NCBI GenBank assembly: GCA_015492515.1
Contig: WGEZ01000074.1
Location: 1 to 44,796, forward strand
Source of the DNA: Nitrospirota bacterium
GTDB taxonomy: Bacteria > Nitrospirota > Thermodesulfovibrionia > Thermodesulfovibrionales > JdFR-85
Direction of reading: 5' to 3'
DNA length: 44,796 bases
The notes below the pieces were generated by a model. The model was not told the origin of the DNA. It searched no databases and was given only the letters and a program-made list of their open reading frames with translations. Of this stretch, positions 2,433 to 25,312 are shown in pieces. The position numbers and the translations under genes are program-made. Numbering within the stretch: the first letter of the stretch is position 1; each line of letters opens with the position of its first letter.

Positions 2433-2511
2433 AGAACCTCCTCCTGGTGGTCGTTGTCTGCTGCCGTCCCTCTATTTTAAGGTTTATCAGCAGGATAATC
2501 AAGGACCGGCA

Positions 2512-2540
2512 TTGACTGTTGTCTCACCATCTGGTAAACT
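2512..2540 (+). promoter_or_regulatory. Putative sigma70 promoter of the amidase/actin/SPOR operon
   Basis: TTGACT (2512-2517), 17-nt spacer ending in TGG, TAAACT (2535-2540), in the divergent intergenic region. Confidence 0.6.
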
Positions 2541-2566
2541 AATGACTGTCCAGAGGCAGGTGATAT

Positions 2567-3634
2567 GTGACTTTTGCAAGACCGTGCAGAAGGGAAGCGA
2601 GGCTGCGGAAGGCGATCCTGAGGGGCATCTACGAGGAAAACCTGAGGATGGCCGGAGGTCGCCGCAGCGAGAAGGGGATCGGAAAGGCCCTCCTGCTCAG
2701 GAAGATCGCGCTCGCCCTCTTCGTCGCCCTTGCCGCCGTATTCGGCAGTTCCAGCCTCCTCGACCTCTCCGTGGTCCAGGAAGACCACATAAACCTCGCC
2801 GGCTCCTTGGTCAACACCCTGACGGACGGCGCAGAGACCACGGATGCTGACGGTGGCATCAACCCCTCCTACTACTCCGCCTTCCTCAGGGACGACGGTA
2901 CGCCCCTGTCCGAGCTCTTCGGTCTCAAGGTGAGGACGATCATCATCGACCCCGGCCACGGGGGCGAGGACCCGGGAGCGGTCGGAAGGCTGGGGACGAA
3001 GGAGAAGGACATAACCCTGGCGATCGCACGGATGCTCAAGGAGAGGCTCTCCAGGTACGACAACTACCAGATCCTCCTGACCAGGGACGACGACAGGACC
3101 CTCTCCCTGAACAGGAGGACCGAGATCGCCAACTCCCTCAAGGCAGACCTCTTCATCTCGATCCATGTGAACTACCTGCCCAACAAGCCGATAAACATCA
3201 TCGAGACCTACTACTTCGGGGCCCATTCCGACGACGCGACACTCAGGCTCGCTGAACAGGAGAACAAGGGCTCCCAGTTCAGCCTCGGCGACTTCAAGGA
3301 GATGATCCGGAAGATCGGCAACACGATGAAGCTGCAGGAGTCGAAGATGCTCGCCCTCTCGATCCAGGAGAGCCTCTTCAGGAACATGGAGGAGCTCCAC
3401 GGCAATGTATTCGACTACGGAATAAAGACCGCTCCCTTCGTGGTCCTCCTCGGGGTGGATGTGCCGAGCGTGTTGACGGAGGTATCGTGCCTGAGCAACC
3501 CGGAGGAGGAGAAGAAGCTGGCCACCGTTGAGTACAGGAGGGAGATCGCCCGCTTCCTCGAGGAGGGGATAGTGGCCTACCTGAATAAACAAAAAGGAGT
3601 AACGGGATATGAAACAGCAAGGCTTCAGCACTGA
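2567..3634 (+). CDS. N-acetylmuramoyl-L-alanine amidase (Amidase_3) with N-terminal membrane anchor
   Basis: IIIDPGHGGEDPGA, TKEKD, LTRDDD, R..IAN..ADLFISIH, APFVVL and PSVLTE Zn/catalytic motifs; hydrophobic IALALFVALAAVFG segment. Start is either GTG 2567 or ATG 2648. Confidence 0.92.
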   Translation: MTFARPCRREARLRKAILRGIYEENLRMAGGRRSEKGIGKALLLRKIALALFVALAAVFGSSSLLDLSVVQEDHINLAGSLVNTLTDGAETTDADGGINPSYYSAFLRDDGTPLSELFGLKVRTIIIDPGHGGEDPGAVGRLGTKEKDITLAIARMLKERLSRYDNYQILLTRDDDRTLSLNRRTEIANSLKADLFISIHVNYLPNKPINIIETYYFGAHSDDATLRLAEQENKGSQFSLGDFKEMIRKIGNTMKLQESKMLALSIQESLFRNMEELHGNVFDYGIKTAPFVVLLGVDVPSVLTEVSCLSNPEEEKKLATVEYRREIARFLEEGIVAYLNKQKGVTGYETARLQH

Positions 3635-4646
3635 CGCCGACGTCCTCTTCGTCGGCATCGACCTCGGGACATCGAGAAGCGCCATCTCGACGAGCAGGGG
3701 GCGGAAGGAGTGGATCGAGAGCTATGTGGGCTGGCCGAAGGACTTCATCGCCCGCAAGGTGCTCGGCAGGCCCGTCCTGTTCGGTGAGGAGGCGCTGAAC
3801 AACAGGCTCTCCCTCGACATCTACAGGCCCCTGGAGAAGGGTGTGATAAAGGAGGGGACCGCGAGGGATGAAGAATCGGTCAGGGAGCTCATCCGTCACC
3901 TCATCGAACTCGCTGCACCTGGTGAGGCACAGAAGATCTACGCCGTGGTAGGCGTGCCGGCGGAGTCGATGAAGATAAACAAGCTCGCCATAAAGAGGGC
4001 GGTATCGGACTACGTGCATTCCCTCATGGTCGTCTCCGAGCCTTTCGCCGTCGCCTACGGGATGGACCTGCTCAACAACGCGCTCGTCATCGATATAGGT
4101 GCAGGCACGGTGGACTTCTGCATAATGCACGGCACCATCCCCACCGAGGACGACCAGAAGACCATCTTCACCGCCGGAGACTACATCGACCAGCAGCTGT
4201 ACGGGTTCCTGGTCGAGAAGCACCCCGAATCGAACCTCAACCTGAACATGGTCAGGAGGTTCAAGGAGAAGTACAGCTTTGTCGGTGACGGGGGCGGCCC
4301 GGTAAGGGTGGAGATACCCGTGGGTGCCAGGCCGGTGGAGCATGACATAACGGAGGATATGAGGCGCGCCTGTGAGGGGATAGTACCGGCCATAGTGGAG
4401 ACCTCCACGGAGATGGTGGCCAAGGTGGACCCTGAATTCCAGGCAGGGATAAGGGAGAACGTGGTCCTCGCCGGAGGGGGCAGCCAGATAAGGGGGATCT
4501 GCGGATACCTCGAGAAGGCATTGAGTGAGTACGGACCTTACAGGGTGCGGGCAGTCGATGATCCGCTCTTCGCCGGGGCGGACGGGGCCCTTGCACTTGC
4601 AAAGGATATGCCGAGGGAATACTGGGAGGAGATGGAAGGGAAATAG
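3609..4646 (+). CDS. mamK: MamK-like bacterial actin
   Basis: Actin-fold motifs GIDLGTS, VVSEPFAVAYG, DIGAGTVD and VLAGGGSQIRG. Segments I recall as MamK-type rather than MreB-type: SRGRK..S.VG.PKD....K.LGRP...G.EA, AV.GVPA, G..P..DDQ.T...AG.YID, F.EKYSFVG, and C-terminal LA.D.P..YW. The symbol denotes the family, not proven magnetosome function. Confidence 0.85.
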   Translation: MKQQGFSTDADVLFVGIDLGTSRSAISTSRGRKEWIESYVGWPKDFIARKVLGRPVLFGEEALNNRLSLDIYRPLEKGVIKEGTARDEESVRELIRHLIELAAPGEAQKIYAVVGVPAESMKINKLAIKRAVSDYVHSLMVVSEPFAVAYGMDLLNNALVIDIGAGTVDFCIMHGTIPTEDDQKTIFTAGDYIDQQLYGFLVEKHPESNLNLNMVRRFKEKYSFVGDGGGPVRVEIPVGARPVEHDITEDMRRACEGIVPAIVETSTEMVAKVDPEFQAGIRENVVLAGGGSQIRGICGYLEKALSEYGPYRVRAVDDPLFAGADGALALAKDMPREYWEEMEGK

Positions 4647-4651
4647 CCCCC

Positions 4652-5818
4652 ATGCGGAACAAGAACATCCTCGTCATCGACGAAGATACGGAGACCCTGA
4701 GGCTCGTAAGCGAGGTCCTCGAGCACGAGGGTCTCGCCGTATTCGTGGTCACCGATTCCGAGAACACCTTACCGATGATCGAGAAGATAGAGCCCGCGCT
4801 GATACTCGTTGAGACGAACCTCTCCGGCATGAGCGGCCTCCGCCTCTGCCAGGATATACACCGTGTGGAGGGGTTCCGAAACATCCCGATCATCCTCCTC
4901 ACCCGGGAGGAGAGGAGATACGACCCGGGATACGCCGCTGACTACGGGGTAGTGGGCTTTATCAGGAAACCAATCGTCGCCGAAGAGCTCCTCTCGAAGG
5001 TGAGGGACGTCCTCACCACCGAGGAGTCGGTGATGGTCGACTTCTCGAGGTTCGAGGATGTCCTCCTCTCAAAGGTGAACGAGATCTTCAGGGAGAGACC
5101 GCCTGAGAGGCCCGGAGGCACCGCTGAAGAGCCGCACGAGGCCGCCGTCACGGAGGATGCACCCGCCGACGACAGCGGGGGAGACGTCGTCGCTGAGGGT
5201 GCACCGGTGGACGCCGCGGTCTCAGGCGCTGAAAGCGCGGAGACGGGGGGCGAAGGGGAGAGGCCCCGTCCGCCGAGGAGGAGGTACAGAAAGAGGAGGA
5301 AGACGAGCCCCCTCCTTGCAGCCCTCGGAGGCGGGGTCCTGCTGCTGCTCATCGTCTCTGCAATCTATCTGAAGACCGGTAAGGAAGGCCCCACCGCTCC
5401 TGATGAGACCGCGGTAATGAAGACGGAGCAGAGCGTTCAGGCCGGGGAGACCCTGGAGCGGGGCGATACAGAGGTGTCGACCATCCAGCCCCAGGAGGAG
5501 GAGACCCTGGAGGAGACGGAGTCTTCCGTCGAAGAGGTCGCGGAGGATGCTCCGCCGCCGGAGGAGCCGGTCACGCCTGAACCGCCTCTCCTCTCCATTC
5601 AGGTGGGGGCGTTCAGGAACCCGGCGAATGCAGAGACCATGAAGCAGAGGCTCGAGTCGAAGGGGTACAGGGCCGGCGTCTATCCCTCCGGGGGGGCAGA
5701 GGAAGGGGTGATCTACAGGGTCCTGATCGGGAGGTTCGACACCAGGGAAGAGGCCCTCAGGAGGCTCAGGGAGATCAAGGAGGCCGAGGGGATCGAGGCG
5801 GTCCTCTTCAGGAGATAG
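4652..5818 (+). CDS. Atypical receiver domain, acidic linker, TM helix and SPOR domain protein
   Basis: N-terminal REC fold (ILVIDED, ILVETNLSGMSG, PIILLT, FIRKP); basic RRRYRKRRK before TM LLAALGGGVLLLLIVSAIYL; C-terminal SPOR motifs IQVGAFRN..NA and YRVLIGRFDTREEA. Confidence 0.88.
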   Translation: MRNKNILVIDEDTETLRLVSEVLEHEGLAVFVVTDSENTLPMIEKIEPALILVETNLSGMSGLRLCQDIHRVEGFRNIPIILLTREERRYDPGYAADYGVVGFIRKPIVAEELLSKVRDVLTTEESVMVDFSRFEDVLLSKVNEIFRERPPERPGGTAEEPHEAAVTEDAPADDSGGDVVAEGAPVDAAVSGAESAETGGEGERPRPPRRRYRKRRKTSPLLAALGGGVLLLLIVSAIYLKTGKEGPTAPDETAVMKTEQSVQAGETLERGDTEVSTIQPQEEETLEETESSVEEVAEDAPPPEEPVTPEPPLLSIQVGAFRNPANAETMKQRLESKGYRAGVYPSGGAEEGVIYRVLIGRFDTREEALRRLREIKEAEGIEAVLFRR

Positions 5819-6005
5819 AGTGGCCGCTTCAGCACACGCCGGTGCCAGGGAATGGCAAAAAAAACCCCCGCTGTTATAAAATAAGTTATCACCGGGAGGC
5901 AAGACTGCCTGTTGTACGCAATACCGCTGTAGTATGCTATCACGAAAGGCCCCTTGACTCAGAGGGAATCGTTTCAGTTTTAATCAGTGTGAGAACGGAG
6001 GTGGT

Positions 6006-6884
6006 ATGAGTTCGGTGACAAAGGCGTTACTTCCCGCTGCAGGGCTTGGAACGAGGTTCCTGCCGGCTACGAAGGCGTCCCCGAAGGAGATGCTGCCCAT
6101 CGTGGACAAGCCGATGATACAGTACGCCGTCGAAGAGGCCGAGTCGTGCGGGATAAACGAGTTCATCGTCATCACGGGAAGGCACAAGAGGACCCTGGAG
6201 GACCACTTCGACACGGTGTACGAGCTTGAGGAGGACCTGAAACAGAAGGGCAAGGAGAAGCTGCTGGAGGAGATCAACAGGCTCAGCCATCTCAACTTCG
6301 CCTACATCCGGCAGGGCAGGCCCCTCGGTCTGGGCCACGCCATACTGAGGGCGAGGCCCTTCGTCAAGGACGAGCCCTTTGCAGTGCTGCTGAGCGACGA
6401 CATAATAGATCCGGACGAGAACCTCCTTGAGCGGATGATCGGTCTGTACGAGGAGTTCCGCTCGCCCATCGTGGCCCTCGAGGAGGTGCCCGCTGAGGAG
6501 ATACACCGCTACGGTGTGATAGCCGGCGCAGAGGAGAGGCCCGATCTGTACAGGTTCACCGACCTCGTGGAGAAGCCGGACCCCGAGGAGGCGCCGAGCA
6601 ACCTTGCGATCATAGGGAGATACATCCTCACTCCGGAACTGTTCGACATCCTGGAGGAGATGGAGCCCGGCAAGGGCGGGGAGTACCAGCTCACCGACGC
6701 CCTGAGGGAGCTGCTCAAGGTGAGGCCCGTCTACGGCGTCGTATTCCGGGGAAAGAGGTACGACGCCGGTGACAAGTTCGGGTTCCTGAAGGCGACGGTG
6801 GACCTGGCACTGAGGAGTTCCACGGTCTCGGAGAAGTTCAGGGAATACCTGGTCAATGTCGCGGCCCGACTGAACAGGAACTGA
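6006..6884 (+). CDS. galU: UTP--glucose-1-phosphate uridylyltransferase
   Basis: PAAGLGTRFLPATKASPKEMLPIVDKP, LGLGHA, VEKP, GEYQLTDA; ggagg RBS. Confidence 0.97.
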   Translation: MSSVTKALLPAAGLGTRFLPATKASPKEMLPIVDKPMIQYAVEEAESCGINEFIVITGRHKRTLEDHFDTVYELEEDLKQKGKEKLLEEINRLSHLNFAYIRQGRPLGLGHAILRARPFVKDEPFAVLLSDDIIDPDENLLERMIGLYEEFRSPIVALEEVPAEEIHRYGVIAGAEERPDLYRFTDLVEKPDPEEAPSNLAIIGRYILTPELFDILEEMEPGKGGEYQLTDALRELLKVRPVYGVVFRGKRYDAGDKFGFLKATVDLALRSSTVSEKFREYLVNVAARLNRN

Positions 6885-6950
6885 ACCCCTTCCCCGAGAG
6901 ACCGGACGGACGACGATGAAAGAGGAAAGGACGGCGTAGAGGAACAGAAA

Positions 6951-9329
6951 ATGGCAGACCTCGTAAAGGACGAGAAGGAGATAGAGATACCCGATACCCT
7001 GCCGGTATTGCCGGTGAGGGATATCGTCGTATTCCCCTACATGATCATCCCCCTCTTCGTGGGAAGGGAGATGTCCATAAAGTCCATCGACCACTCCCTC
7101 AACACGAACAGGCTGGTGCTGCTGCTGACGCAGAAGGACCTGAGCATCGAGAACCCCACACCCGAGGACCTGCACAGGGTCGGAACGGTGGGTCTGATTA
7201 TGAGGATACTCAAGCTCCCCGACGGCAGGGTGAAGATCCTCGTGCAGGGTGTCGCAAAGGCGAGGGCTGAGGAGATCAAGGTGAAGGACTACTTCGAGGC
7301 CTCCGTCAGGAAGATCGAGGACAAGAAACCATCGGAGATGACCATCGAGGTGGAGGCGTTGATGCGGACGGTGAAGGAGCACCTCGACAAGGCGGTCTCC
7401 CTTGGCAAGACCATACTACCAGACATCATGGTGGTCATCGAGAACCTGGACGACCCCGGAAGGCTGGCAGACCTCGTGGCCTCGAACCTCGGTCTGAAGA
7501 CCGAGCAGGCACAGGAGATACTCGAGATCGAAGACCCTGTGCAGAGGCTCGCCAGGATCAGCGAGATCCTGAGCAGGGAGATCGAGCTCCTCCTGGTGCA
7601 GCAGAAGATCCAGACCGAGGCGAAGGGAGAGATAGACAAGACCCAGAGGGAGTACTTCCTCAGGGAGCAGCTCAAGGCTATACAGCGGGAGCTCGGCGAG
7701 ATCGACGAGCGGGCGGAGGAGATCAACGAGTTCAGGAAGAAGATAGAGGCCGCCAGGATGCCGGAGAAGGTGAAGAAGGAGGCGGAGAAGCAGCTGAGGA
7801 GGCTGGAGAAGATGCATCCCGACAGCGCCGAGGCAGCGACTGTGAGGACCTACCTGGACTGGCTCGTGGAACTGCCCTGGAGCAGAGCGACGAGGGACCG
7901 CGTTGACATCAAGGCCGCAAAGAAGGTGCTCGACGAAGACCACTACGACCTCGAGAAGGTGAAGGAGAGGATACTGGAGTACCTGAGTGTGAGGAAGCTC
8001 AAGGCCAGGATGAAGGGGCCGATCCTCTGCTTCATCGGACCGCCGGGGGTGGGGAAGACCTCCCTCGGGCGCTCCATTGCAAGGAGCCTCGGCAGGGAGT
8101 TCGTGAGGATGTCCCTCGGCGGCGTGAGGGACGAGGCGGAGATCAGGGGACACAGGCGCACCTACGTGGGCGCGCTGCCGGGACGGATAATACAGGGGAT
8201 CAAGCAGGCCGGCACGAACAACCCCGTCTTCATGCTCGACGAGATCGACAAGATAGGGATGGACTTCAGGGGCGATCCTTCTTCGGCGCTCCTGGAGGTC
8301 CTTGACCCTGAGCAGAACAACGCCTTCGTCGACCACTACCTCGGCGTACCCTTCGACCTCTCGAACGTGATGTTCATAACCACGGGAAACATGGTGGACA
8401 CCATCCCGGGACCCCTCAAGGACAGGATGGAGATCATCTACCTGAGCGGCTACACCGAGGAGGAAAAGCTGGGCATCGCCCGCAACTACCTCCTGCCGAA
8501 GCAGCTCAAGGAGCACGGGATCACGGAAAAGATACTCACCGTAACCGACTCGGGCCTGAAGCTCCTCATCTCCCACTACACGCGCGAGGCGGGGGTGAGA
8601 AACCTCGAGAGGGAGATAGCCAACCTCTGCAGGAAGGTGGCCAAGCAGATCGCCGAGGGTAAGAAGAAGCGGTTCGTCATAACGGCAAGGAACCTCCACC
8701 GATACCTCGGTGCACCGAAGTACCTGCCCGAGGAGGAGATGGAGAAGGACGAGACGGGCGTCTCCACAGGACTCGCCTGGACCGAGTCAGGCGGTGACAT
8801 CATCTACGTCGAGGCGACGACGATGAAGGGAAGGGGCAACCTCACCCTCACCGGCCAGCTCGGAGAGGTGATGAAGGAGTCGGCCCAGGCAGCCCTCAGC
8901 TACATACGCTCGAGGGCCAGACAGCTCGGGATCAAGGTGGACACCTTCTCAAAGACCGACATCCATATCCATGTCCCCGCCGGTGCTATCCCGAAGGACG
9001 GTCCCTCCGCGGGCATCACCATGGCCGTGTCCATCGCCTCCGCCCTTACGGGCAGGCCTGTGGACAAGAGGGTGGCCATGACCGGAGAGGTGACCCTCAG
9101 GGGGAGGGTCCTGCCCGTCGGCGGGTTGAAGGAGAAGATACTCGCCGCCAAAAGGATGGGCATACACAGGATCATCCTGCCGAAGAGGAACGAGAAGGAC
9201 CTCGAGGATATCCCGAAGTACGTCAAGAAGAACGTGGAGTTCATCTTCGTGGACAGGATGGACGAGGTGCTGAAGGTCGCCTTGAAGCCCAAGAGGAAGA
9301 CGGGCCACAGAAAAAACAAGAAAAAATAG
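6951..9329 (+). CDS. lon: ATP-dependent protease La
   Basis: LON N-domain, Walker [23 protein letters not shown], catalytic PKDGPSAG and GGLKEK. Confidence 0.98.
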
Positions 9330-17712: not shown

Positions 17713-17920
17713 CCTTTGGCCCTGAAAAGCTTTCTGGTGTCTTATCAGTTTATCATTACGGGGGGGAAAAATCTACCAACAAACGTTAACAATCCGGTAC
17801 GATATCGTTTAATTTTGTAGGCACTTCAAGTACAAGATGGACCCCGAGGACCCACGTTATTGCAACGACCGCTCCCTTTCGGTTATATTAATTGATTACA
17901 TGGCCTTCGTCTTCACGGGC

Positions 17921-20449
17921 ATGCAGGAATTCATTGTAATAAAGGGTGCCAGAGAACACAACCTGAAGAACCTGAACCTCAAGATCCCGCGGGAGCGGAT
18001 AATCGTCGTCACCGGCCCCTCGGGCTCCGGCAAATCATCGCTCGCCATAGACACCATATATGCGGAAGGGCAGCGCCGCTACGTCCAGAGCCTCTCCTCC
18101 TATGCACGGCAGTTCATCGGAGAGCTGCAGAAGCCCGATGTGGACTACATCGAGGGGCTGTCCCCCTCTGTAGCGATCGAGCAGAAGACGGTCTCCAGGT
18201 CACCGAGGTCCACCCTGGGGACGATAACCGAGGTCTACGACTATATGAGGGTGCTCTACACCAGGGTGGGCAGGGCCTTCTGTTACCGCTGCGGCAGGCC
18301 GATCACCACACAGGAGACGGAGAATATACTGCAGTCCGTTCTCCAGATGCCCGCGGGCACCAGGCTCCAGATCCTCTCACCGGTGGTCCAGGAGCGGAAG
18401 GGCGAGTACAGGAAGGAGCTCCAGCAGATGAGGCGGGAGGGGTTCGTGCGCGCCAGGATCGACGGCAGGATGGTGGACCTCACCAAGGACATCACGCTGA
18501 AGAAACAGAAGCGGCATACCATAGAGATCGTGATCGACAGGTTGATAGCGAAACCCGGCATGGAGAGACAGCTGAGGGCCGCGATAGAGAACGCCCTCAT
18601 CCACTCCGACACGGTGGTGATCAACCTCGTGGACCAGGGCAGGGACATCCTCTTCAGCAAGACCCTCTCCTGCACGAGCTGCAGGATAAGCTACCCGGAG
18701 ATCACCCCCATGTTCTTCTCCTTCAACAGCAGGATCGGTGCCTGCCCCTCCTGTCAGGGACTGGGCTACATCAACCTCACGGAAGAGACGACCGAGTTCG
18801 ACGAGCTGGTGCCCTGCAGGCGGTGCGGGGGACTGAGGCTGAGGGCCGAGGCCCTGGGCATCAGGCTCCAGGGCCTCAACATCGGCGAGTTCTCGAGGCT
18901 CTCCGTACGGAGGTCCCTCGAGTTCATAGACTCCCTCACCTTCACCGAGAGGGAAGAGCTGATCTCCAGACGGATCATCAAGGAGGTGAGGGACAGGCTC
19001 CGGTTCCTCCAGAGGGTGGGGCTCGACTACCTCTCCCTGGACAGGCCTGCTGCAACGCTCTCCGGCGGTGAGGCGCAGAGGGTGAGGCTGGCGACCCAGC
19101 TCGGTTCCTCCCTCACGGGCGTGCTCTATGTGCTGGACGAGCCGAGCATCGGGCTCCATCCGAGAGACTGCAGGCGACTCCTCGAGACCCTCTCGGAGAT
19201 CAGGGACTCTGCAAACACGGTGATAGTGGTGGAACACGACGAGGAGACCATCAGGTGGGCCGATCACGTGATCGATCTCGGTCCAGGAGGCGGCACCTCC
19301 GGCGGATGGGTTGTGGCAGAGGGTAGACCCGAGGAGGTGGAGAAGGTCGAATCATCACCGACGGGACGGTTCCTCTCGGGAAGGAGGAGTATCCCCCTGC
19401 CGGCCTTCAGGCGGAGACCGAAGGGATGGATCGAGATAACCGGTGCATCGGAGCATAACCTGAAGGATCTGGACGTGATGATCCCCCTCGGCCTATTCGT
19501 CTGCATCACGGGGGTGTCGGGCTCCGGAAAGAGCACCCTTGTGCTGGACATACTCTACAGGGCGCTCCTCAGGGCGATCCACGGCAAGAGGGTGAGGCCT
19601 GGAAGGTTCAGGACGATAAAGGGTACGGAGCAGCTGTCACGGGTCATCTCCATAGAGCAGAGGCCCCTCGGACGGACGCCGAGGTCGAACCCGGCAACCT
19701 ACACGGGCATATTCACCCATGTGAGAAACCTCTTCTCCAGGGTCCCGGACGCCAGGGTGAGGGGGTACACGGCCTCAAGGTTCAGCTTCAACGTCCCCGG
19801 CGGCAGGTGTGAGAGCTGCAAGGGAGCGGGCTTCAAGAAGGTGGAGATGCATTTCCTCCCCGACGTCTACGTCCCCTGCGACGAGTGCAAGGGGATGAGA
19901 TACAACAGAGAGACCCTCGAGATCAGGTTCAAGGGGAAGAACATCTCGGAGGTCCTGGAGATGACCATAACAGAGGCCCGTCAGTTCTTCTCCCACATCC
20001 CCGCCCTGAAAGAGAGGCTACAGGTGCTCTCCGACGTGGGGCTCGGCTACATCAAGCTCGGACAGTCCGCAACCACCCTCTCCGGCGGTGAGGCGCAGAG
20101 GGTGAGGCTTGCCAGGGAGCTCGGCAAGAGGGCCAGAGGCTCAAGCCTTTACATCCTCGACGAGCCGACAACAGGCCTGCATTTCGTGGACATCGAGCGC
20201 CTCCTCGGGGTGATACAGGGGCTGGTTGAACGTGAAAACACCGTGGTGGTGATCGAGCACAACCTCGACATCGTGAAGTGCGCCGACTATGTGATAGACC
20301 TCGGACCCGAGGGCGGAGAGGAGGGCGGCTACATCGTGGCGGCTGGTACGCCTGAAGAGGTATCGCTCAACGAGGGGTCTTACACAGGCAGGTTCCTGAG
20401 GAACAAACTACAGGAGCACCGGGCGAGAGGGACCCGGGTGACGGCGTGA
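17921..20449 (+). CDS. uvrA: Excinuclease ABC subunit A (short form, about 842 aa)
   Basis: GAREHNLKN, two Walker A motifs (GPSGSGKSS, GVSGSGKST), two TLSGGEAQR signatures, C-terminal Zn finger GRCESCKG...CDECKG. Confidence 0.96.
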   Translation: MQEFIVIKGAREHNLKNLNLKIPRERIIVVTGPSGSGKSSLAIDTIYAEGQRRYVQSLSSYARQFIGELQKPDVDYIEGLSPSVAIEQKTVSRSPRSTLGTITEVYDYMRVLYTRVGRAFCYRCGRPITTQETENILQSVLQMPAGTRLQILSPVVQERKGEYRKELQQMRREGFVRARIDGRMVDLTKDITLKKQKRHTIEIVIDRLIAKPGMERQLRAAIENALIHSDTVVINLVDQGRDILFSKTLSCTSCRISYPEITPMFFSFNSRIGACPSCQGLGYINLTEETTEFDELVPCRRCGGLRLRAEALGIRLQGLNIGEFSRLSVRRSLEFIDSLTFTEREELISRRIIKEVRDRLRFLQRVGLDYLSLDRPAATLSGGEAQRVRLATQLGSSLTGVLYVLDEPSIGLHPRDCRRLLETLSEIRDSANTVIVVEHDEETIRWADHVIDLGPGGGTSGGWVVAEGRPEEVEKVESSPTGRFLSGRRSIPLPAFRRRPKGWIEITGASEHNLKDLDVMIPLGLFVCITGVSGSGKSTLVLDILYRALLRAIHGKRVRPGRFRTIKGTEQLSRVISIEQRPLGRTPRSNPATYTGIFTHVRNLFSRVPDARVRGYTASRFSFNVPGGRCESCKGAGFKKVEMHFLPDVYVPCDECKGMRYNRETLEIRFKGKNISEVLEMTITEARQFFSHIPALKERLQVLSDVGLGYIKLGQSATTLSGGEAQRVRLARELGKRARGSSLYILDEPTTGLHFVDIERLLGVIQGLVERENTVVVIEHNLDIVKCADYVIDLGPEGGEEGGYIVAAGTPEEVSLNEGSYTGRFLRNKLQEHRARGTRVTA

Positions 20450-22987: not shown

Positions 22988-23910
22988 CCCCCGGCGTTCA
23001 CCTGCTTGTACAGCACCATATACTCCTTCTCGAGGCTCTCCAGCTCCCTCCTCAGCCCCTGGAGCTCCCGGTCCTTCTCCCGGAGCGCCTCCTCGAGCTC
23101 CCTCACCCTCTCCTGGAGCCCGGCGGCGTCGGGAGGCACCGTGCCGACACCGACAAGGAGGTCCCGCTCCATCTCGCCCATCCCCTCCTCGTACTCACCC
23201 AGCCTGGCCAGGAGCCGTGCGTTCTCCTTCTCGAGGGTCTCTACACAGAGGGCCATCTCCCTGTTGACGTTCTCCATCTCCTCGAGACACCTCTGCAGCT
23301 CCTCCACGTCTCCGGGGTCCTTCAGCCCCTTCAACCGGTCCCTCAGCTCCCTGTTCCTCTCCCTCAGTCGATCGAACCTCTTCCGGACCTGCTCGAGCAT
23401 CTCCTGGGCGCCGAGCAGCTCTGCCATCTTCCTCCTCTGCCTCTTGAATGCCTCCTGGAACCTCCTGAGGGCCTTCCCCTTCTCCTCCGCCTCTTCCACG
23501 GCCTCCGAGACCACCCTCTCCTTCATCCCGATCACGTCCTTGACCCAGACGAGCCCCTTCCCTGCCGATTCCCTGAACCCGGCCCTGATCGATCGTGTGA
23601 GGGCCTCCGCCCCTTCACCGCCCTTCCTGAGCGCATCATAGAGGGCGGTCATGAACCCGTAGTCCAGCTCGTATATACGCCTCTGGAGCAGGGCCTCGAG
23701 GTCGTCCGGGTCCTCTGCCGAGCGGCCCTCCACCTCGCCCTTAAGGGCCAGGAGCTCGGTCTCCATCGCCCTGATCAGGTCCTCCATCTCCACGGCCCGA
23801 GGACCTCCAGCGGCCCTTCGTCCCCTGTACACCATGTAGGCCACGGCGACGGCCAGCAGGACGACCGCCTCAAGGAGAAGCAGTATATACAGGGGGTCAA
23901 CCTCTATCAA
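22984..23910 (-). CDS. Single-TM, long coiled-coil protein
   Basis: TTG start after ggagg, overlapping the upstream stop; TM LYILLLLEAVVLLAVAVAYMVY followed by RGRR, then E/R/L-rich heptads to the C-terminus (ELESLEKEYMVLY). Confidence 0.75.
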   Translation of the reverse strand: MIEVDPLYILLLLEAVVLLAVAVAYMVYRGRRAAGGPRAVEMEDLIRAMETELLALKGEVEGRSAEDPDDLEALLQRRIYELDYGFMTALYDALRKGGEGAEALTRSIRAGFRESAGKGLVWVKDVIGMKERVVSEAVEEAEEKGKALRRFQEAFKRQRRKMAELLGAQEMLEQVRKRFDRLRERNRELRDRLKGLKDPGDVEELQRCLEEMENVNREMALCVETLEKENARLLARLGEYEEGMGEMERDLLVGVGTVPPDAAGLQERVRELEEALREKDRELQGLRRELESLEKEYMVLYKQVNAGG

Positions 23911-25312
23911 CCTTCCACCTCCGGTAGAGGAGGACCATCGAGACGAGGAGGGCGAAGCCGGCATTGACGGCGGCAAACCTGAGGATCACCCTCCTCCAGG
24001 AGACCCCCTCCTGCCCGTCGGCCGCGGAGACGACGACCTCCTCCCCTACACCGGCAGGCCCTCCGCGCACCGGGGCGTCGACGACCGCAAAGGTATAGCT
24101 CTTCTCCCTCTCGAAGGTCTTCCCCTTTGCCGTGAACCTGACGATGTACTCACCGGGCGGCCCTCCCCCCAGCAGGCCGGTGTAGACACCGTCACCGGCG
24201 ATCCTGTCGGCACCGAAGCCGTCGTCTCTGAGCTCCACGGCCATGCCCTCACCGGCAGGGCCGTCCACCTCTGCAGAGAAGACCACACCCTCCAGCAGGA
24301 GGGAGGTCTCCGCCAGGGCCTCTCCCTGCTGCTGGAGCCAGACCTCGACCCTCTCTTCCCTTCCCTCAGGGATCAGGTAGCGGTCGAAGGTGGTCATCAG
24401 GTTCAGACCGGTGATGATGAACGCCCTGCTGCCCCTCCCGGCGCTGTATCTTATGAACCACGTCCCCCTCGGGGGTCTCTTGATGGTGACCACCTCATGC
24501 GTCCTCGCCCGGTACCATCTTACACCCCCGGGGTGCCTGCTGTACGTGTAGGTCACGCCCTCCGGGCTCTCCAGCGATACCTCCGTCAGGGAGGTCCCCT
24601 TCGTCATCACGAGGGTGAGCTCCTCCACTGCACCGTCCACATAGAACCTCTCATCCCTCACGGGGAGCGAATCCGGGGCCATCACCTTCGAGTATATGTC
24701 GGTGAAGGGGATATGGAGGTCGTCGTCACTGTCAATGAAGTAGAAGAACCCACCCGTCTTCAAGGCGATCTCCTTCAGGAGCTCCGAGTCCGCCCCCCTG
24801 CCGAAGGCTATCGTGTATATCCTTATCCCTGCCTCGGTGAGCTCTGGAAGGACCTCGTTGAACATCCTCCTGAGGAGGGTCTTCTCGGTCCCGGGGTCAC
24901 CGAGGTCCATCCTGCCGTCGGTCATCAGGACGATTATCCTGCTCTCCTTCCTCGAACCCCTCAGGATCCTGTAGGAGGCGACTATAGCTCCGTAGATGTC
25001 GGTATGGGCACCGGTGGAGCTGATCCCCTTCAAGCTCCTCAGCAGGCGGTTCCTCTCCTTGCTGACGTCGCTCAGGCCTGCAAGCACCCTCACCTCTGAA
25101 TCAAAGGCGACGATGGCCACGCTGTTTCCACCTTCAAGGAGGGAGATGAAGATCCTCGGCGCCTGGACCTTCAGATTGCGGGGATCGGTCCTCTTCATGC
25201 TCCCCGATGTATCCACGGCGATCACGGCGTCCAGCCCGGCCTGAGCGCCTGAGCCCCTGCCTGCCGGCACAGCGATGAGCAGGACCAGACAGAGGAGACT
25301 AACCCTCCACAT
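23897..25312 (-). CDS. Secreted vWA-domain protein with C-terminal membrane anchor (TIGR03503-like)
   Basis: Signal peptide; MIDAS motif DTSGS...T...TDG; beta-rich middle region; LRDDG..AD..AGDGVYTG motif; C-terminal TM plus RRWK. Confidence 0.82.
   Translation of the reverse strand: MWRVSLLCLVLLIAVPAGRGSGAQAGLDAVIAVDTSGSMKRTDPRNLKVQAPRIFISLLEGGNSVAIVAFDSEVRVLAGLSDVSKERNRLLRSLKGISSTGAHTDIYGAIVASYRILRGSRKESRIIVLMTDGRMDLGDPGTEKTLLRRMFNEVLPELTEAGIRIYTIAFGRGADSELLKEIALKTGGFFYFIDSDDDLHIPFTDIYSKVMAPDSLPVRDERFYVDGAVEELTLVMTKGTSLTEVSLESPEGVTYTYSRHPGGVRWYRARTHEVVTIKRPPRGTWFIRYSAGRGSRAFIITGLNLMTTFDRYLIPEGREERVEVWLQQQGEALAETSLLLEGVVFSAEVDGPAGEGMAVELRDDGFGADRIAGDGVYTGLLGGGPPGEYIVRFTAKGKTFEREKSYTFAVVDAPVRGGPAGVGEEVVVSAADGQEGVSWRRVILRFAAVNAGFALLVSMVLLYRRWKVDRG

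Follow-up and report, generated by a model that had tools for sequence, protein, structure and literature searches.

What is an actin of the MamK family doing in a bacterium whose assembled genome holds no magnetosome gene cluster? The question is raised by a gene at positions 3609 to 4646 of a 44,796-nucleotide stretch of DNA from a Nitrospirota bacterium (assembly GCA_015492515.1, contig WGEZ01000074.1), hereafter termed the window, which is the whole of contig C74 in a 2.19-Mb assembly of 148 contigs that is 100% complete and 0.32% contaminated. A first-pass annotation, made from the sequence alone, had described this gene as an orphan. That description does not stand, as the gene is flanked on its own strand by an Amidase_3 gene and by a gene with Response_reg and SPOR domains, and the three make up an operon (2567-5818) that is unrelated to magnetosomes. 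In the reading to which we incline, the actin filament would position or gate the cleavage of peptidoglycan through the cytoplasmic tail of the amidase. The three genes are as follows:

2567 to 3634, + strand: bitopic N-acetylmuramoyl-L-alanine amidase of 355 residues with a GTG start (Pfam Amidase_3, 154.5 bits)
3609 to 4646, + strand: MamK-family actin-like ATPase of an amidase-linked subfamily, 345 residues, ATG start (from profile, structure-relative and clade evidence)
4652 to 5818, + strand: bitopic protein of 388 residues with a pseudo-receiver domain, a transmembrane (TM) helix and a SPOR domain (Response_reg, 69.8 bits; SPOR, 61.1 bits)

The genes are tightly packed, with the start of the actin gene overlapping the end of the amidase gene by 26 nt and the SPOR gene beginning 5 nt past the actin stop; a ribosome-binding site, AAGGAG, lies 9 nt ahead of the actin ATG. 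The assignment of the middle gene to the MamK family is supported by profile searches, in which it reached 430.3 bits with the NCBIfam MamK model NF040964 (cut-off 400; 430.2 bits in the genome search), as against 207 bits with the BeeR model (cut-off 530) and 69.9 bits with the MreB model PRK13927 (cut-off 293). Pfam recognised the generic MreB/actin fold only. Among solved structures the closest relative is the Magnetospirillum MamK 5jyg_A (E 1.5e-94, spanning residues 11-342), followed by BeeR 8r2n (E 8e-45) and MreB (E 1e-10). The earlier claim of a MamK-like actin with intact ATPase motifs holds well, since the segments then cited are all found in the translation (VSEPF at residues 142-146, VGWPKDFIARKVLGRP at 40-55, KEKYSFVG at 219-226 and PREYW at 335-339) and the MamK cut-off is passed. 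Among 70 close relatives, residues D18, G20, D162, G164 and G166 do not vary, and at least 90% of the sequences retain E144; we take these to be the nucleotide-binding and catalytic residues of the actin fold. A separate, true MreB is encoded on contig C1 of the same genome (TIGR00904, 514 bits, cut-off 365.75), with which model the actin of the window scores 56.

Conservation of the gene neighbourhood points to the amidase as the constant companion of this actin. A scan of one genome per species returned 209 stretches encoding a relative, so that at least 209 species-level genomes hold one, and the best 80, which were kept, are 60-73% identical and carry source titles of Nitrospirota, Thermodesulfobacteriota, Aminicenantes, Gammaproteobacteria and others; a protein-level search gave 4741 clusters at E 1e-60 or better, a count that includes other MamKs. 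From the best species-scan stretches, relatives and a phylum sample, 110 loci were assembled. An amidase catalytic domain, 51-69% identical, is encoded directly upstream and on the same strand in 94 of the 110 loci, ending between 161 nt before and 22 nt after the start of the actin alignment and mostly within about 70 nt of it. The 14 loci lacking the amidase are exactly those whose actins are 44-48% identical (447-507 bits), one of them (L005) being the MamK inside the magnetosome cluster of a same-order genome (G037), and 2 loci have less than 100 nt of upstream DNA, too short to judge. These counts are of loci and not of independent events, as some genomes were reached twice and two loci (L021 and L106) are identical. 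The association extends to a sister group, P0006, which among the clusters made at 50% identity is the one nearest to the actin of the window (52% identical) and in which the amidase lies upstream in 53 of 53 loci drawn from metagenome contigs, each with at least 800 nt of upstream DNA.

Clustering of the open reading frames (ORFs) within 6.5 kb at 78 loci recovered the amidase in all 78 and the receiver gene in 34, while no other real gene family occurred in more than 9 and no LytM activator, adaptor or centromere-like partner was conserved beside the pair. The distance matrices of amidase and actin are strongly correlated (Mantel r 0.825; 0 of 999 permutations as high), as expected if the two travel together. 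The pair spans many phyla, mostly of uncultured anaerobes, and was also observed in NaphS2 (L067), a named lineage not known as magnetotactic.

A mobile origin of such a module, either as an endolysin with a phage cytoskeleton or as an Alp-type plasmid segregation system, would be in keeping with the N-terminal membrane anchor of the amidase, and a holin-like PF04020 gene was met in 2 of the 25 downstream genes scanned and a transposase in one. The window, however, is otherwise housekeeping DNA (Lon, LeuRS, UvrA-like, TatAC), the actin found only 4 matches of at most 26% identity in the phage collection and 10 of at most 27% in the plasmid collection, and the adaptor or centromere-like partner of a segregation system is absent from the conserved neighbours. 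A phage or plasmid derivation is in our judgement very improbable.

Phylogenetic analysis was carried out with a quick tree of 102 rows and a careful one of 90 rows (IQ-TREE, LG+C20), the latter omitting five long-branch representatives and every second row of two large groups; the two agree. Both were computed without ParM, FtsA or Alp references and rooted on the MreB of the genome itself. The close relatives form a clade with P0005 (support 100/97), and all amidase-linked rows (17 + 15, P0005 and P0006) are united in one clade (98/100) together with P0069, a single long-branch representative without known gene context, so that the amidase state changes once among the rows of known context. 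The Nitrospirota MamKs without amidase form a clade of their own (100/100), as do the BeeR-like proteins (100/100), and in a quick tree the actin falls inside an 81-row MamK group apart from BeeR with a Shimodaira-Hasegawa-like approximate likelihood ratio (SH-aLRT) support of 94. The actin of the window is not part of the main Nitrospirota subgroup. The trees, which have one long MreB branch as their only root, do not resolve the deeper order of the MamK-family clades. The phylogenetic check proposed in the first-pass annotation was run against MreB and, in addition, BeeR rows, and the actin branches with neither; this agrees with the idea, put forward there, of a MamK-family actin outside a magnetosome cluster that represents a non-magnetosome branch. 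Beyond the close relatives, the family includes an FtsZ-MamK fusion of 768 residues (P0041) and proteins of 523-1232 residues in which a MamK domain at the C-terminus follows a long N-terminal region without Pfam match (P0009, P0011, P0016-P0019, P0023, P0025, P0027, P0029, P0032, P0034, P0035 and P0039), three of these long proteins forming their own clade in the trees.

Does the gene nevertheless serve magnetosomes? Forty-two chosen ORFs of the window were scanned with Pfam and showed no MreC, MreD, RodA/FtsW, FtsZ or specific Mam family, as had been stated earlier for the mreC, mreD, rodA, ftsZ and mam genes. The search for core mam genes was widened to the whole genome, with the same-order genome G037, which has a real magnetosome cluster, serving as positive control. 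In the cluster of G037 the corresponding models found MamM (388.7 bits), MamP (229.5), MamA (158.8) and MamE (256.2), along with two MamQ-like genes, a MamB fragment and a MamK of 469 bits. The best scores in the genome of the window were 32.9 bits for MamP (PDZ only), 129.9 for MamM, 150.8 for MamB, 84.3 for MamA and 45.6 for MamQ, all below the cut-offs and level with those of ordinary control genomes; a MamI search gave zero matches in the genome and in the controls alike and is uninformative. When the ORFs of the G037 cluster were compared with the genome of the window, they met generic relatives at 26-33% identity (a cation diffusion facilitator transporter, HtrA, LemA, TPR), the sole exception being the MamK of G037, which matches the actin of the window at 45%. 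Nor does the assembly hold a full magnetosome cluster lacking only mamK. In the assembled genome, then, the gene stands outside any magnetosome cluster and by its gene context does not qualify as a magnetosome MamK in the functional sense. Adjoining the cluster-type MamK of G037 are a response-regulator gene and a very divergent actin-like gene of 415 residues (L092:7291-9415, - strand), the latter scoring 48 bits on the MamK model.

It could still be argued that the bacterium is magnetotactic and the gene its mamK, either relocated or left as a relic, as the same order includes true magnetotactic genomes with full clusters and binning can miss magnetosome islands. Yet MamA, MamB, MamM, MamP and MamQ do not rise above the generic level in a 100%-complete assembly, a result which also tells against the earlier suggestion of a dispersed paralog in a magnetotactic organism. 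The clade of the gene is moreover separate from that of the cluster-type Nitrospirota MamKs, none of the 37 genomes that passed the MamK cut-off in the 401-genome phylum sample listed both types, and the pair occurs in lineages such as NaphS2. We consider a relic mamK scarcely credible.

The amidase was dissected into the following elements:

2615 to 2650, + strand: conserved cytoplasmic tail motif ILRGIYEENLRM, amidase residues 17-28, within a predicted helix (residues 7-28)
2675 to 2755, + strand: transmembrane helix, residues 37-63 (hydrophobic stretch; AlphaFold2 helix with a predicted local distance difference test score, pLDDT, of 87-89)
2933 to 3583, + strand: catalytic domain, residues 123-339, including an insertion that corresponds to the regulatory region of AmiA/B/C (from alignment and Pfam)

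The GTG start at 2567 is supported by an alignment of 71 homologues, and the layout of the protein comprises a cytoplasmic tail, a TM helix, a disordered linker and an AmiA/B/C-like catalytic domain. The AlphaFold2 model (pLDDT 77.7) reproduces this layout: it shows the helix at 7-28 and the TM helix, leaves residues 64-99 as a disordered linker and folds the catalytic domain with confidence, and from the sequence the first 36 or so residues are predicted to face the cytoplasm. Enzymes of the AmiA/B/C type are exported and soluble, bear a signal peptide and, in AmiB and AmiC, an AMIN targeting domain; the present amidase departs from that type in possessing a cytoplasmic tail and a TM anchor instead, and Pfam found no AMIN domain in it. 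H131, E146, H200 and E305 are invariant in the 71 amidases and are presumably the metal-binding and catalytic residues. The best Foldseek match of the model is E. coli AmiA (8c2o, template modelling score 0.79), although the NCBIfam matches to AmiA, AmiC and CwlD all fall below their cut-offs.

The PDB entries of AmiA (8c2o), AmiB (3ne8) and AmiC (4bin) align in one stretch through residues 123-339, whereas CwlV-type enzymes align only to about residue 219. As the former run through residues 220-265 and the latter stop short of them, the insertion that is regulatory in AmiA/B/C appears to be present in this amidase, and the model places two helices (223-232 and 240-250, pLDDT 62-77) in the putative regulatory insertion. 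This likeness lends itself to an account in which the actin is a switch and not a scaffold: its ATP-driven assembly state would be relayed through tail and TM helix and would release an autoinhibited amidase without any positioning, much as in FtsEX-EnvC. The one-stretch alignment through the regulatory-helix region, the lack of a conserved LytM activator gene beside the pair at the 78 loci and the predicted contact of the tail with actin would all accord with a switch. Mechanical coupling is nonetheless hard to picture across a 36-residue disordered linker (pLDDT below 50) between the TM helix and the enzyme, and autoinhibition by the insertion is only putative in this amidase. We rate the switch as rather unlikely.

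The cytoplasmic tail itself carries a distinct signature. Its family consensus is ILRGVYExNLRI. All 71 amidases have N25 and at least 90% of them L18, and ahead of residue 119 no other position is conserved. A strict pattern recovered the motif in 60 of 77 amidases and inspection by eye in 73, the other four ORF calls lacking the N-terminus. It occurs once in the 1.84 million six-frame residues of the genome. By eye, the sister group can be seen to have a motif akin to it, LLRxAVxxN with L, V or I as the next residue. The tail motif was not found in the ORFs of the magnetosome cluster of G037.

Complex prediction was performed with the actin (70-sequence alignment) and amidase residues 1-42 (71-sequence alignment). 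The interface score ipSAE (interaction prediction score from aligned errors) was 0.78, 0.80 and 0.80, as against 0.00 for the best of 3 controls; the mark applied was attained by 58 of 80 solved complexes and by 2 of 110 mismatched pairs, counts that are approximate for the present case, since our own alignments were used. The runs share at least 88% of their contacts and the pLDDT of the partner is at least 62. On the tail, the predicted contacts (residues 10, 13-14, 16-22, 24-26 and 28-30) coincide with the conserved motif, and L18, I21, Y22 and N25, among which are both of the conserved tail positions, belong to the lowest-error pairs. On the actin they comprise residues 125-126, 129, 139-142, 150, 153, 155-156 and 175-177, together with 330, 333-335, 338, 341-342 and 345. 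By comparison with eukaryotic actin, these presumably flank the segment of the catalytic Glu and the C-terminal helix and line the cleft between subdomains, a site bound by many actin-binding helices and by ParR on ParM. The likeness to ParM-ParR lies in a partner helix predicted against residues 139-156 and the C-terminal segments of the actin fold, where the cleft presumably lies; in contrast to that system there is no ParR, centromere or plasmid, and the partner is a wall enzyme.

A more sceptical view would hold that the genes are merely co-regulated neighbours, for example in division, whose proteins do not touch, and that the actin has some other cargo. Adjacency alone is indeed no proof of binding, and the interface residues of the actin are not specially conserved. 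However, many phyla retain the pair although the genes around it are otherwise unrelated, its genes overlap or abut, the tail motif is conserved without other evident purpose and the predicted complex passes its controls, so that we find mere co-regulation quite improbable.

Several observations weigh against a filament that positions or gates the amidase, and are best considered together. The tail-actin complex is a model, and the docking result could partly mirror a generic helix-binding likeness of the actin cleft. The actin residues in contact are no more conserved than the rest (10 of 22 at 90% or above, against 152 of 345 overall), and when both amidase-linked groups are compared with other MamKs only G83 and V91 are group-specific, with no obvious docking patch. 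Shared kinship inflates the apparent independence of the Mantel result and of the locus counts. The SPOR gene is missing from most non-Nitrospirota loci, and elsewhere in the genome there are two more Amidase_3 genes and five more SPOR matches, from which it follows that the module is not the sole wall-splitting system of the cell. Lastly, in filaments of actin and ParM a neighbouring subunit may fill the same cleft, and binding of the tail could therefore be limited to monomers or filament ends.

In one variant the tail would bind only the free cleft of the terminal actin subunit, as ParR does on ParM, and insertional growth or treadmilling of the filament would carry the wall-cutting enzyme along through the membrane. 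We regard it as fairly unlikely. If true, it would amount to a cytomotive actin with a peptidoglycan hydrolase as cargo, which from the cytoplasmic side would trace out cleavage of the wall as a line or a ring, and in Nitrospirota the SPOR protein would provide feedback.

The third gene of the operon encodes a receiver fold (residues 6-118), a TM helix near residue 218 by a simple hydrophobicity rule and a SPOR domain (residues 315-385, positions 5594-5806). The phospho-acceptor position, 54, is Glu and not the Asp expected of a response regulator, and among 27 homologues the position is occupied by N (13), K (5), E (3), S (2), R (2), Q (1) and by Asp in one; the TM helix is found in 26 of the 27. 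Since the Asp is absent and the TM helix present in nearly all homologues, the protein is by its sequence a bitopic one, whose cytoplasmic domain does not depend on phosphorylation and whose SPOR domain lies in the periplasm. Its layout (cytoplasmic N-terminus, one TM helix, periplasmic C-terminal SPOR domain) is that of FtsN, and its score on the FtsN equivalog falls short of the cut-off (38.5 against 107.65 bits). We did not find the combination of pseudo-receiver, TM helix and SPOR domain described in the literature examined, as far as the portions available extend.

The receiver gene is largely confined to Nitrospirota, being present in 24 of 35 Nitrospirota-titled loci, 1 of 15 of Thermodesulfobacteriota and 0 of 9 of Pseudomonadota. 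Elsewhere the downstream gene is varied and may be a receiver-PilZ, SPOR-TPR or holin-like PF04020 gene, a kinase, a transposase or an unrelated enzyme. The PF04020 gene, a four-TM holin-like one, stands directly after the actin in two Nitrospirota loci (L031:11192-11581 and L044:11047-11445). Comparative evidence accordingly presents the amidase-actin pair as the apparent constant core of the module and the SPOR gene as a lineage-specific addition.

With these elements the favoured reading, that of a filament acting on the amidase through its tail, can be set out as a sequence of steps. The actin would polymerise beneath the membrane and bind the amidase tail, the helix of which would dock on actin segments 139-156 and 330-345; the filament would thereby fix, move or gate the site at which the periplasmic enzyme cuts the wall. 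SPOR domains bind glycan strands stripped by amidases, and in Nitrospirota the SPOR protein may sense where the wall has been cut and, by way of its pseudo-receiver, signal this to the filament. The cellular role is likely septum splitting or local wall remodelling.

How does this arrangement compare with known systems? The E. coli divisome includes an axis of FtsA, FtsN and AmiA/B/C, which the operon resembles in having an actin fold inside, a bitopic SPOR protein and an AmiA/B/C-type amidase outside, and from which it differs in its MamK-type actin, its membrane-anchored amidase with a cytoplasmic tail and no AMIN domain, and the pseudo-receiver on its SPOR protein. A nearer parallel is offered by the bactofilin BacA and the bitopic M23 peptidase LmdC encoded adjacent to it, the cytoplasmic tail of which is reported to be bound by BacA (PMC10945521). 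That pair was studied in Hyphomonas neptunium and Rhodospirillum rubrum, its adjacency is kept across phyla and the short conserved cytoplasmic N-terminal tail of LmdC is the BacA-binding determinant (PMC10945521). The two cases share a cytoskeletal polymer gene beside the gene of a bitopic wall hydrolase with a conserved cytoplasmic tail, and in the present case too the polymer gene adjoins the hydrolase gene across phyla. They differ in a nucleotide-dependent actin in place of a bactofilin, an Amidase_3 enzyme in place of an M23 peptidase and a predicted helix in place of a beta-hairpin. BacA-LmdC may thus be taken as the closest worked example, by way of analogy and not of membership.

With respect to the Magnetospirillum MamK (5jyg, 5ljv, 5ljw; NF040964), the actin belongs to the same family by the model cut-off, by a near-full-length match and by its retained ATPase residues. 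It is set apart by a genome without magnetosome genes, by a separate supported clade defined by the upstream amidase and by a predicted partner that is the tail of an amidase and not a magnetosome adaptor. MamK-related, filament-forming actins of non-magnetotactic bacteria have been reported as BeeR (PMC11929497) and saltatorellin (bioRxiv 10.1101/817700), the available sections of both of which mention no amidase partner; the BeeR-like proteins are separated from the present actin by their clade (100/100) and by the distance of its score from the BeeR cut-off. A metagenome survey counted 2798 MamK-like matches, no more than 227 of them on a scaffold with further mam genes, and it treats those without mam neighbours as homologues to avoid (PMC7449369), while the tests in a further study, as seen in its accessible part, are limited to MamKs of magnetotactic bacteria and to ParM (PMC10653835). 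Our literature search, with subscription journals and supplements outside its scope, found no paper linking MamK-type actins to an amidase.

The remaining features of the locus can be summarised briefly. A single candidate promoter lies upstream of the amidase:

2512 to 2540, + strand: sigma-70-like promoter match (TTGACT, 17-nt spacer, TAAACT, with TG before the second hexamer)

The match is weak, being one to the consensus only, with 2 such matches in the region against 0.8 expected. An antisense ORF of 402 codons (2477-3685, - strand) was considered as a gene and rejected: it has no family matches, and its tblastn matches in 75 of 90 loci are a shadow of the amidase gene, disappearing as a separate feature when the + strand amidase is used as query. 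Long ORFs on the wrong strand are common in the DNA of the window, of which about 60% is G+C. To the right of the operon, an NTP (nucleoside triphosphate) transferase-Lon pair (about 5900-9329) is syntenic in 10 of 10 same-family relatives examined (L139-L148); nothing to the left of that pair is syntenic, none of the ten showing lipA, the aldolase or the cassette there, and no clean empty site can be delimited. The operon is thus located at a synteny break among these relatives. None of 22 other same-family genomes carries the actin gene, which must either have been acquired or have been lost many times. Farther along the window are an 870-residue UvrA-like ABC (ATP-binding cassette) ATPase (17837-20449, + strand) with a UvrA interaction domain and two ABC halves, preceded by ORFs without family match, and a VWA-domain protein (23897-25312, - strand) that also has a galactose-binding-like domain of hemicentin type, weakly matched, and lies between two ORFs that likewise have no family match.

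Overall, bacterial actins guide wall synthesis (MreB), division (FtsA), the partition of plasmids (ParM) and the arrangement of magnetosomes (MamK), and the literature searched yielded no actin devoted to a wall hydrolase. Public records label the protein "MreB" or "MamK family", and surveys in which magnetotaxis is recognised by the presence of MamK can be misled by the latter label. The operon itself suggests a hitherto undescribed internal filament that controls where the cell wall is cut.

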